Shown piece by piece: positions 14,018-18,349 of a DNA stretch of 64,000 nucleotides (position 1 is the first letter of the stretch; each line of letters starts with the position of its first letter). The notes under the pieces were generated by a model that did not search any database, was not told the DNA's origin, and saw only the letters and a program-made list of their open reading frames with translations. The position numbers and the translations under genes are program-made. Source of the stretch: Escherichia coli (GTDB lineage: Bacteria > Pseudomonadota > Gammaproteobacteria > Enterobacterales > Enterobacteriaceae); NCBI RefSeq assembly GCF_011045215.1, contig NZ_CP049201.1. One strand, 5' to 3'.

Positions 14018-14548
14018 TTAGCTCATCGCTTCGAGAACCACACCGTCTTGTTCCATCTGGTCGAGACGGGAGAGCAATTTGCGGGTGATTTGCTCGAGCT
14101 GATCTTTTTCTGTTGTGCTGAGCGCGGACCAGAGTTGATGCAGGCAGTTATGCTGCGGTGGTAAAACCTCGCGCAAAAACTCGTGACCTTTTTCCGTTAA
14201 TTGCAGATGCAGGCAGCGGCGATCGTTATCGCTTTCACGACGTTCGATCCAACCGCGTTTTTCCAGTTCATCGGCAATACGCGTCGCGTTGGTACGGGAT
14301 GATCCAAGAGCACAACTTAATTCAGAAGGCTGAATACTGTGGTTTTCCTGAGACTCCAGCGTAATCAACGCCATAAACAACGTCTCGTTAATCCCCTGAG
14401 CCTTCAGCATTTTATTGCGGTTCTCCAGCAGCTTGCTTTGCATGTGCATGCAAAGACGAGTCAGAAGGATCTCCTGATAAGGAAAATCTTCGTGGCGGCT
14501 GGCGCGAAATTTTAGCATTTGTTCAATGGGCGTAAACGAACTATCCAT
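14018..14548 (-). CDS. mprA: MarR-family repressor of emrAB (EmrR/MprA)
   Basis: 176-aa [55 protein letters not shown]... Confidence 0.95.
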
Positions 14549-14638: not shown

Positions 14639-14974
14639 TTATATAATCGCCATCACTTTCCAGGCGAGCCCATAGGCCAGCGCACTAAGCAGTGTTGGGA
14701 TGATAATGCTGCGTGTTTTATAGAAACTGGCACCCAGTACCGCGAAGCCGACCAGCGTGGGCACGAAACGGCGTGTATCGTGCATCACTTCTGGTGCGGT
14801 AGAGACAACCAGCAGAGCGCATATCGAGGCGATGCCAATGGTGTCGAGCAAAATACCTACCGCGCCACGTTTGGTTGGGCGGGCATTACCCACACGCAGG
14901 CGCAGCGGCAAATAGCGGAAGCAATAATTCGCCGCGCCAACCAGTAACCCAAGCAGCAGAACCTCATAGCTCAT
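14639..14974 (-). CDS. ygaH: L-valine exporter small subunit
   Basis: 111-aa hydrophobic ORF overlapping ygaZ stop. Confidence 0.85.
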
Positions 14975-15701
14975 CGGGCGCTCCTTGCCAGAATGCCTGG
15001 ATTAACGCAGTGAGGCAGCCACAGACAATGCCTGCCAGAATGGCGACGGGAATAGAAAATAGCGTTACGCCTGCAAGGGCACCAACTAACGCTGCGGTAA
15101 CGCAAAGAGATTGTTTGCGCTGGAAAGAGGCGAGCAGGAAACTCATAAAGAGTGCCGGAAGCATAAAACCTAATGCTGCTTCAACGGCGGGATAACCTTG
15201 CAGCAAGCCGCTGCCGGAGAATGCCCCTATTACCGTACCAAATACCCACGATGACCATGAACTGAAGGCAATGCCGATCATCCAGTTCTCGCTCCAGCGG
15301 CGATTATTGCGTACCAGTTTTGCGGTTGCGGCGGCAAAAACCTCATCCGTCAGGCCAAACGCCCACAGGGCGGTTTTCGATTTTTGCAGACGCTGAATAA
15401 TACGGCTACGCAGTGACGGGCCATACAACACATGGCGAACATCCATTGCCATGACGGTCAGTGCAGCAACCCACAAACTACTCCCGGCTGCCAGCATCGC
15501 GGTAATGACGAACTGGCTCGCGCCTGCATAAATGATGCAGGAGAAAAAAACGCTTTCGAGAGGAGAGAATCCCAGACGGGTCGCATTCAGACCGAACGCA
15601 AAGGCCACCGGAATATAACTAATAACAATCGGTAAACTGTCTTTGCATCCTTCCATGAAGGTCGCCGAACCAGGAGCAGGCTGTGGAGTAGGGCTTTCCA
15701 T
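14964..15701 (-). CDS. ygaZ: L-valine exporter large subunit (AzlC family)
   Basis: 245-aa membrane ORF upstream of ygaH. Confidence 0.85.
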
Positions 15702-15824
15702 AGAGTGTACGCTTAACGATTGTTAATATTATAAATAGACTGAATGAATATCTTAACCTTATCAGACTGATGGGCTTCTTAACACCCTTATAAGTGTAAA
15801 GCCACGAAAACGGTTGCTGATTGC

Positions 15825-17009
15825 TTAATTTGCGGCTTCCTGACGATGAAAACCTCGCCACCAGACCAGTAAGTTAACCAGGGCAATCGTCGCGCCAGCC
15901 AGACAAACGCCAGCCCAACCGCCATGTTGCCAGGCTGAGGCTGAAATTAGCGAACCGGCGGCACCGCCAATAAAGTAGCTGGTCATGTAACCTGCGGTCA
16001 GGCGATTACGCGCATCAGGATGTATTCGATAAATTACCGTCTGGTTAGTGATATGCACGCCCTGTACGGTGAGGTCCAGCACCAGAATGCCGATAATCAA
16101 CGCCAGTACGGAAGTGTGACCAAACCAGATTGCCAGCCATGAAAGTAACAGCAGAAGCAGACCGAAAGTTGTGGTGTGGTGCGATTTGCCCTTGTCGGCA
16201 AAACCGCCCGCCGGACGAGCGCCCAACGCTCCGGCAGCTCCCGCAAGCCCAAACAGACCAATTACACCATCGCTGTAGTTAAAAGGTGGAGCGGCAAGCA
16301 AAAAGGCCATTGAGGTCCAGAGAATGCTGAAGTTGGCAAAGGTCAGGCAGCCCAGCAACGCGCGGGTGCGCAGGATCTTATTGCTGATAAACATGCTGAA
16401 AACGGAACCCAACAACTGTGGGTAGTTGAGGTGGGTTTCTGATTTCATTTGTGGCAGACCACGCCATAATGCCAGCGCCATCAGAGCCATTAACACCGAG
16501 GCAACCCAAAAGACGGTGCGCCAGCCGCCGAGGTTTGCCAGTAACCCGGCAACGGTTCGTGCCAGCAATATCCCCAACAGCAGACCGCTCATAATGGTGC
16601 CAACCACTTTGCCGCGTTTATCCGGTGAAGCCAGCGTCGCTGCCAGCGGAACCAGAATTTGTGCCACGACTGAGAATAAACCGGTTAATGCCGTACCGAG
16701 GATCATCATCGCCAGTGACTGACTGCTGGCAGTGATTAACATACCGCCCGCTGCCAGTAAGGTCATCGAGACAATCAGGCGGCGGCGTTCAAATATATCA
16801 CCGAGGGGAACAAGAAACAGCAGACCGGCGGCATAGCCCAACTGCGCGGCGGTAACAATAAAGCCTGCCGAACTGGCGGAAAGGGAAAAGTTACGCGCGA
16901 TGGTGTCGAGCAATGGCTGGGCGTAATAGTTGCTGGCGACCGCCAGACTGGTGGCGATAGACATCAGCACGATTAGCGCCGGGCTAAGCTCATGATTAGG
17001 TTTGGTCAT
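15825..17009 (-). CDS. ygaY: MFS transporter, apparently intact
   Basis: Uninterrupted 394-aa ORF with 12 predicted hydrophobic segments; in K-12 this locus is a pseudogene as I recall. Confidence 0.75.
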   Translation of the reverse strand: MTKPNHELSPALIVLMSIATSLAVASNYYAQPLLDTIARNFSLSASSAGFIVTAAQLGYAAGLLFLVPLGDIFERRRLIVSMTLLAAGGMLITASSQSLAMMILGTALTGLFSVVAQILVPLAATLASPDKRGKVVGTIMSGLLLGILLARTVAGLLANLGGWRTVFWVASVLMALMALALWRGLPQMKSETHLNYPQLLGSVFSMFISNKILRTRALLGCLTFANFSILWTSMAFLLAAPPFNYSDGVIGLFGLAGAAGALGARPAGGFADKGKSHHTTTFGLLLLLLSWLAIWFGHTSVLALIIGILVLDLTVQGVHITNQTVIYRIHPDARNRLTAGYMTSYFIGGAAGSLISASAWQHGGWAGVCLAGATIALVNLLVWWRGFHRQEAAN

Positions 17010-17110
17010 TATTTTTGTTCATCAGGTGATGATTAAGCTGGAAATCAATAATAGCGGATGTTGATGAATATGGGATGAAAGATAGATTGTTGAAATGTGC
17101 GGTGTGGTTT

Positions 17111-17291
<181 letters not shown>

Positions 17292-17300
17292 GAATAAAAA

Positions 17301-18293
17301 TTACTTCTGTGCAGCCAGCGCCTCCTTTACCCAGCCATCGAACTGCTGCTGATGGGCTTTGATCCAGCCATCAACGTGGCCCTGAATATCGCCTTCTGAG
17401 GCTTTGCCGTCATGCATAATGGCGTTCTGGGCGTTAATATCTGCCACTGGCAACTGCATAATGGCAAACAGTTTCGCTGCTGCCGGGTTTTTCTCGGCCC
17501 AGGCTTTATTGGCAACGATATGCATGGTGCTGACCGGGAAGCCGTAATTCGCGCCATTCGGCAGTTTGGTATCGGCATTTTTATCGCCCGGCAGTGCAGA
17601 GAACGGCACCTGCAACCAGACCACATCTTTCCCTGGCTTCAGCTCATTACTCACCCAGTACGGCGTCCAGGTGTAGTAAAACACCGGTTTGCCCTCTTTG
17701 TAACGACTGATGGTGTCAGCCATCATCGCCGCGTAGTTCCCCTGATTATGCGTCACGGTATTGGTCAGTTCATACGCGGCAAGCTGGTGGTTGATCGCAC
17801 CTTCGCAGCCCCAGCCAGGGTTACAGCCAGTCAAATCCGCTTTACCGTCGCCGTTGGTATCTAACAGTTTGGCGATCTTCGGATCTTTTAGTTGTGCGAT
17901 GTTGGTGATTTTGTACTGGTCGGCGGTTTTCTTATCGATCAGGTAACCCTGTGCCGCGCCGTTAACAAATACCCCTTCACGATAAAATTTCTTATCGCCA
18001 CCGGCAGCTTCGTACATGTTGTCATGCAGTGGCGTCCAGTTCACGGCGGTGAAGGTTGCATCGCCGGAAGCAAGCGAGGTGTAGCCAACGTTGTAATCCA
18101 CTTCGCTGGGTTTATTGACGGTATAACCTAATTTCTCCAGCGCACGACTGACCAGCAGTGTCTGGAAGGTTTCTTCGGTGATGGTGCTTTGAACTGGATT
18201 AACAGTAATGCCTTTGCCCGGCAGATCGGCAGCAAAAGTTTGTGTAGAGATAAGCGTGGCAAACGCTGTCGCAAAAAGTACGCTATGTCGCAT
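17301..18293 (-). CDS. proX: glycine betaine/proline ABC transporter periplasmic binding protein
   Basis: ORF 17301..18341; ProX begins [31 protein letters not shown] (signal peptide). Confidence 0.95.
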
Positions 18294-18349
18294 TGTTATT
18301 CCTTTTTTTGGCAGGGTGATATGCCCGGCGTCACCGGGCAAGTGCAGAG

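Follow-up and report, generated by a model that had tools for sequence, protein, structure and literature searches.

The window analyzed here, a stretch of 64,000 nucleotides of Escherichia coli DNA, carries on its minus strand the gene ygaY as an uninterrupted open reading frame of 1185 nt (394 codons and a stop); no start codon lies between its ATG and the upstream stop. The original prediction had placed an uninterrupted 394-codon frame at 15825-17009 without stating a strand; the list of open reading frames bears this out and assigns it to the minus strand. The gene lies between proX and ygaZ, where its ortholog is annotated as "MFS transporter" in O157, PapM-32-1, and NEBExpress, and the order proVWX-ygaY-ygaZH-mprA-emrAB is common to the window, K-12, O157, and PapM-32-1. 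Coordinates of the genes and sequence features considered here are given in Table 1.

Table 1. Genes and sequence features at and around ygaY, in window coordinates.
Feature	Position	Strand	Remarks
mprA/emrR	14018-14548	-	Downstream of ygaY
ygaH	14639-14974	-	Downstream of ygaY
ygaZ	14964-15701	-	Downstream of ygaY
σ70-like site, TTAAGA-17-TATAAT	15728-15756	-	In the ygaY-ygaZ spacer; 10/12 match
ygaY coding sequence, intact	15825-17009	-	ATG 17009-17007, stop 15827-15825; open reading frame list, Pfam, orthology
GGCAGCG, deleted in K-12	16749-16755	-	Gene positions 255-261, codons 85-87, predicted TM3; alignment
TM2-TM3 cytoplasmic loop PLGDIFERRRL	16776-16808	-	Residues 68-78; motif-A-like; conservation among relatives
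Codon 72	16794-16796	-	ATA (Ile) here, ATG (Met) in almost all E. coli; variant base 16794
Codon 21	16947-16949	-	AGT (Ser) here, GGT (Gly) elsewhere; TM1; variant base 16949
proX-ygaY spacer	17010-17300	-	291 bp here; 191 bp in K-12, O157 PV15-279, and PapM-32-1
Tandem REP-pair/BIME units	17108-17190, 17208-17290	-	Two copies, period 100 bp, 96% identical
proX, then proW	from 17301	-	Upstream of ygaY

The GC content of ygaY (54.9%) is similar to that of the neighboring genes, and a horizontal-transfer origin of the gene was rejected on this ground. Mean GC content of the window is 47.6%; the stretch from about 36000 to 64000 is low in GC (34-44% in most 2-kb bins, compared with approximately 50-55% around ygaY), broken by bins of 49-53% at 44-48 kb and 56-58 kb, a pattern that points to one or more islands gained by horizontal transfer downstream of the ygaY neighborhood. 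The proX frame (17301-18341, minus strand) was mechanically begun at an upstream TTG, giving 346 amino acids; ProX as annotated in related genomes has 330 amino acids and starts MRHSVLFA, a detail of ORF calling and not a biological difference.

In K-12 MG1655 (NC_000913.3), ygaY (b2681, 2808316-2809493) spans 1178 bp and is annotated as a pseudogene, as the original prediction had stated; RefSeq labels the gene of an MG1655-derived strain "frameshifted". The K-12 and window genes share locus, start, and stop. Global pairwise alignment of the window coding sequence with b2681 gives 42 substitutions (96.4% DNA identity outside the indel) and a sole indel of 7 bp absent from K-12 (CGCTGCC on the plus strand of the window), so that K-12 is frameshifted and does not carry an identical intact frame. 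Without these bases the original frame of K-12 ygaY ends after 88 residues, in TM3, with 14 stops beyond; unlike it, the window copy has the 7 bp, and its reading frame therefore stays open to the end. The deletion site falls in helix 75-94 of the AlphaFold model and reads ACT GGC AGC GGG CGG, with GGC...GGC microhomology flanking the 7 bases; a deletion between such GGC microrepeats is as expected for replication slippage, which would be its probable origin. The rest of K-12 YgaY is still open in another frame, which accounts for the old split annotation ygaX/ygaY; both names appear in an earlier publication (Shimada et al., 2014; PMC3946193).

Apart from the frameshift, the K-12 gene has hardly departed from its relatives at the protein level. 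With the frame restored, its product differs from that of the window at three residues (G21S, M72I, and D210N), and with the 7 bases masked, comparison of K-12 with the O157-type allele shows 39 synonymous changes and one nonsynonymous change. Because a single residue separates repaired K-12 from O157, the K-12 lesion is recent and has been followed by no further decay.

The distribution of the lesion was followed with a 40-mer over the K-12 junction, for which an undeleted allele offers no megablast seed word. Among 5426 complete E. coli genomes, 353 contained this 40-mer at 100% identity, and each of the 60 rows sampled across these matches is a laboratory derivative of K-12 or an O16:H48 strain, including MG1655, BW25113, C600, J53, JM109, MC4100, DH10B-type strains, and S17-1; roughly 93% of complete E. 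coli genomes are without the K-12 lesion. The whole ygaY coding sequence was matched in 5418 genomes, with at least 80% of it covered in 5413. When the span of the gene was surveyed in 60 genomes spaced evenly through the match ranking, it measured 1185 bp in 54, 1182 bp in one (PO06101, annotated as an intact protein of 393 amino acids), and 1178 bp in four, all of them K-12 types. The remaining genome, PCP06021, has a large, independent deletion running from about codon 53 of ygaY into ygaH. In this Galapagos seawater isolate (NZ_CM129877.1, 4001-4463), ygaY is cut off after approximately 53 codons, ygaZ is missing entirely, and ygaH has lost its start; the fused remnant is annotated as a partial MFS pseudogene beside a shortened ygaH. 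In the B strain NEBExpress ygaY is intact. A 40-mer for the intact allele was found in 2145 genomes, a count that is a lower bound only, owing to nearby SNPs; this census was set aside, the junction count and span survey being more informative. Among public assemblies there are also shorter ygaY-like proteins of 175-323 amino acids, 89-98% identical at the N-terminus and diverging after it, and one metagenome protein of 596 amino acids with 72% identity; these odd lengths probably reflect other frameshifted alleles or assembly errors.

The comparison of genomes thus presents the intact gene as the ancestral and usual state of ygaY and the 7-bp deletion as specific to the K-12 lineage. The original prediction was right to conclude that the strain is not K-12, given 42 substitutions in ygaY alone and a junction 40-mer that is confined, in the sample, to K-12 derivatives. 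With some 93% of genomes free of the lesion and the intact form ancestral, an intact ygaY used as a marker nevertheless tells only that a strain is "not K-12". Over 20 kb, the best match to the window is the baboon isolate PapM-32-1 (99.5%), and no complete genome is identical.

Conservation of the gene extends well beyond E. coli. Intact proteins of 390-397 amino acids, most of them 394 long, are listed by the protein search for E. coli, Shigella sonnei and flexneri, E. fergusonii, E. marmotae, and E. albertii (identities of 95-99%) as well as for Citrobacter (92-93%), and the Escherichia matches of exactly 394 amino acids are 97-99% identical; the high full-length identity and equal length place the window protein in the ygaY ortholog group. 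Contigs of Citrobacter, E. fergusonii, and E. albertii share the order nrdEF-proVWX-ygaY-ygaZH-mprA(emrR)-emrAB. By the Nei-Gojobori method, dN/dS is 0.03-0.05 for every between-species pair (dS reaches about 1.2-1.5 in the comparison with Citrobacter), which amounts to strong purifying selection. Such selection argues for an expressed and useful YgaY protein, and together with the conserved synteny it indicates that ygaY may be functional in this strain, as had been proposed. As a pseudogene, ygaY is specific to K-12, owing to the 7-bp deletion, and it is not decaying throughout E. coli.

That the open frame might be no real gene, or the difference from K-12 a sequencing artifact, can be given almost no credence. 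The translation matches Pfam MFS_1 at 143.2 bits, far over the gathering score of 33.4 (E = 1.2e-41), same-length orthologs number in the thousands and are under strong purifying selection, and the K-12 junction recurs in 353 independent assemblies; nothing was found in favor of either idea, and both were discarded as refuted.

The allele in the window is intact without being quite "wild type", since it carries two rare substitutions. Its nearest allele, WP_000165714.1, an "MFS transporter" of O157:H7 and relatives such as PV15-279 and 2013C-4465, encodes 394 amino acids in the same context and is identical to the window at 1183 of 1185 bases (99.8% DNA identity). Both differences, G21S and M72I, are nonsynonymous and C>T on the plus strand; there is no synonymous difference. 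Positions 21 and 72 are invariant across 101 homologs of 394 amino acids among the matches listed. A 40-mer specific for S21 was found in one of 5426 genomes, the chicken isolate GZ2408C (at a 95% match that had to include the central base), and one specific for I72 likewise in a single genome of the 5426, PapM-32-1. In the wider family of 92 full-length relatives, position 21 is Gly in 80, Ala in 10, and Ser in none, and position 72 is Ile in 14. The G21S change in TM1, from one small residue to another, is probably tolerated. A hypermutated or degraded allele was considered and rejected: Ile72 is present in PapM-32-1 and frequent among wider-family members, and the flanking genes diverge to an ordinary degree.

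Upstream of ygaY, the spacer to proX is longer in the window than in the genomes compared with it. K-12, O157 PV15-279, and PapM-32-1 have a single copy of the REP-pair unit that is duplicated here, and the longer spacer appears to be shared by some other E. coli, judging from single-piece matches with 100% coverage. Both units match Rfam RF02564 (naRNA4) on the minus strand above the gathering score (75.8 and 73.9 bits), and an Rfam scan of the spacer found this REP-derived family only, with no riboswitch or leader. The final 100 bp or so ahead of the ygaY ATG are conserved, and any promoter or ribosome-binding site for ygaY in the spacer must sit there. A consensus scan of the 291-bp spacer found no σ70-like promoter on the gene strand; such a simple scan misses weak or non-σ70 promoters. 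Promoter and terminator counts over 15500-17500 were not above those in shuffled sequence, and the one good promoter site in that interval is that of ygaZH, in the ygaY-ygaZ spacer. The same hexamer pair is listed as a constitutive ygaZH promoter (Shimada et al., 2014; PMC3946193), which suggests that ygaZH is transcribed independently of ygaY.

In K-12, the ygaY locus is weakly transcribed, somewhat more so after hyperosmotic shock, and is one anchor of a bridge, mediated by H-NS, to the downstream regulatory element of proU; RT-qPCR on the pseudogene showed that transcription across it is low and influenced by H-NS and StpA (bioRxiv 10.1101/2023.07.10.548347). These observations bear on the idea that the reading frame is intact and yet silent or impaired in this strain, through poor expression or damage by the private G21S change, which is considered improbable. 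It would fit the lack of a promoter-like site on the gene strand, the REP elements and H-NS-bound region upstream, and the low, H-NS/StpA-influenced transcription in K-12, and it draws further on the rarity of the two substitutions (each in one of the 5426 genomes), on a position 21 at which 90 of 92 relatives have Gly or Ala and none has Ser, and on the nonsynonymous character of both differences from the nearest allele. Against it, a genus-wide dN/dS of 0.03-0.05 speaks for a gene expressed and selected in nature, the consensus scan is blind to weak or non-σ70 promoters, Ser is a small residue like the Gly it replaces, Ile72 is frequent in the wider family, and two substitutions are too few to indicate relaxed selection.

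The preferred explanation, held with considerable confidence, is that the window carries an intact, ancestral ygaY ortholog encoding a 12-helix MFS secondary transporter most like DHA1-type exporters. Membership in the superfamily follows from the MFS_1 match, accompanied by a weaker one to MFS_4. The typical MFS hydrophobicity noted in the original prediction is upheld by a hydropathy profile that fits about twelve membrane spans, and the AlphaFold model is all-helical with roughly 12 TM helices (pLDDT 94.3, pTM 0.92; built with a 93-sequence alignment in which the window protein stands beside 92 full-length relatives). The twelve-helix, two-bundle MFS fold is further evident from Foldseek TM-scores of 0.79-0.85 to 12-TM MFS crystal structures. 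The family is large: at E ≤ 1e-30, an exhaustive HMMER search gave 1118 clusters when sequences were grouped at 50% identity. In the 93-sequence alignment G70, D71, R151, D272, D312, and R336 are near-invariant and R75-R76 mostly conserved, and there are charged residues within TM5 and TM10.

MFS motif A, in the TM2-TM3 loop, has the consensus G-x-x-x-D-R/K-x-G-R-R/K. The corresponding loop of YgaY, PLGDIFERRRL, has family-conserved G70, D71, and R75-R77 in a spacing that departs from this consensus, and a second A-like element, ADKG, lies at residues 270-273. The antiporter motif C of TM5 has the consensus G-x8-G-x3-G-P-x2-G-G; in YgaY the TM5 sequence is TIMSGLLLGILLARTVAGLL, and the 394-residue translation contains no "GP" dipeptide.

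DHA1 exporters head both the profile and the structure searches. Searched against the PDB, the profile of the family alignment matched SotB over its full length (E = 2e-15), then EmrD (E = 7e-14) and YajR, and Foldseek was led by SotB, MdfA, and NorA at 15-17% identity. SotB, a DHA1 sugar efflux protein of E. coli (PDB 6KKI/6KKK), is the best solved relative and has the same 12-helix MFS fold (TM-score 0.85, rmsd 2.6 Å over 381 columns); its identity to YgaY is about 17%, however, and the SotB-type sugar efflux model NF002921 scores 63.1 bits against a cut-off of 401. YgaY is therefore no SotB ortholog, and no substrate can be transferred from it. The multidrug:H+ antiporters MdfA, EmrD, and NorA share the fold and a similar length (TM-scores 0.81-0.84 for MdfA and 0.79-0.80 for NorA), whereas YgaY is only 15-17% identical to them and lacks the "GP" core of motif C. 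Every subfamily or equivalog match in the NCBIfam scan fell far under its curated cut-off, so that no named subfamily applies: this holds for the full-length matches to a Cmx/CmrA model (52 versus 400 bits) and to TIGR00710 Bcr/CflA (49.6 versus 200.9 bits; cut-offs of the Bcr/CflA models, 201-303), for NF008654 EmrD (36.7 versus 479 bits), and for the best partial match, to the aromatic acid/H+ symporter model TIGR00895 (residues 34-187). On sequence and model together, YgaY is an MFS member that probably works like a DHA1-type proton-coupled exporter, outside any named DHA1 subfamily.

As such a transporter, YgaY would be made and would run the usual alternating-access (rocker-switch) cycle of MFS proteins. 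The coupling residues are likely to be among the family-invariant charged residues R151 (TM5), D312 (TM10), and R336, and the protein would most probably move a small solute outward against the proton gradient; with the "GP" of motif C absent, this direction is favored only tentatively. The converse possibility, that YgaY is an importer (a proton symporter) of, for example, an osmoprotectant or amino-acid-like solute tied to proVWX or ygaZH, is unlikely but carries more weight than a silent allele. Besides the missing "GP", it can appeal to the position of ygaY directly downstream of proVWX in Escherichia and Citrobacter, the rise of K-12 ygaY transcripts after hyperosmotic shock, and the partial match to the symporter TIGR00895. 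Set against these are the full-length profile and fold matches headed by the exporters SotB, EmrD, MdfA, and NorA, full-length NCBIfam matches that are all to efflux models (SotB-like, Cmx/CmrA, and Bcr/CflA), and the neighborhoods of distant homologs, which have no link to proU-like genes; MFS similarity at 15-17% identity cannot fix direction either way. The neighborhoods of three homologs of 49-57% identity are mutually unrelated and gave no clue to the substrate. A literature search on ygaY returned no functional study and no expression or transport experiment for any ortholog; the gene figures there as a K-12 pseudogene, a neutral integration site, a control, or an H-NS bridge anchor.

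The pseudogene status of ygaY in K-12 and the existence of intact orthologs are already recorded in RefSeq, in EcoCyc-style annotation, and in the literature, and the intact gene described here is an ordinary polymorphism. Nearly all of E. coli physiology comes from K-12, which has recently lost ygaY, and for that reason a real physiological role could have been overlooked, such as metabolite or osmolyte export coordinated with proVWX (osmotic stress) or with ygaZH (amino-acid export); this is a speculative reading with little probability behind it, slightly less even than that of a silent allele. If it were true, the rare G21S/M72I allele of this strain could alter YgaY activity. For practical purposes, ygaY serves widely in K-12 as a "neutral" site of integration or as a pseudogene control; the assumption of neutrality does not extend to B strains (NEBExpress is intact) or wild isolates, in which an unbroken gene is kept under strong purifying selection.
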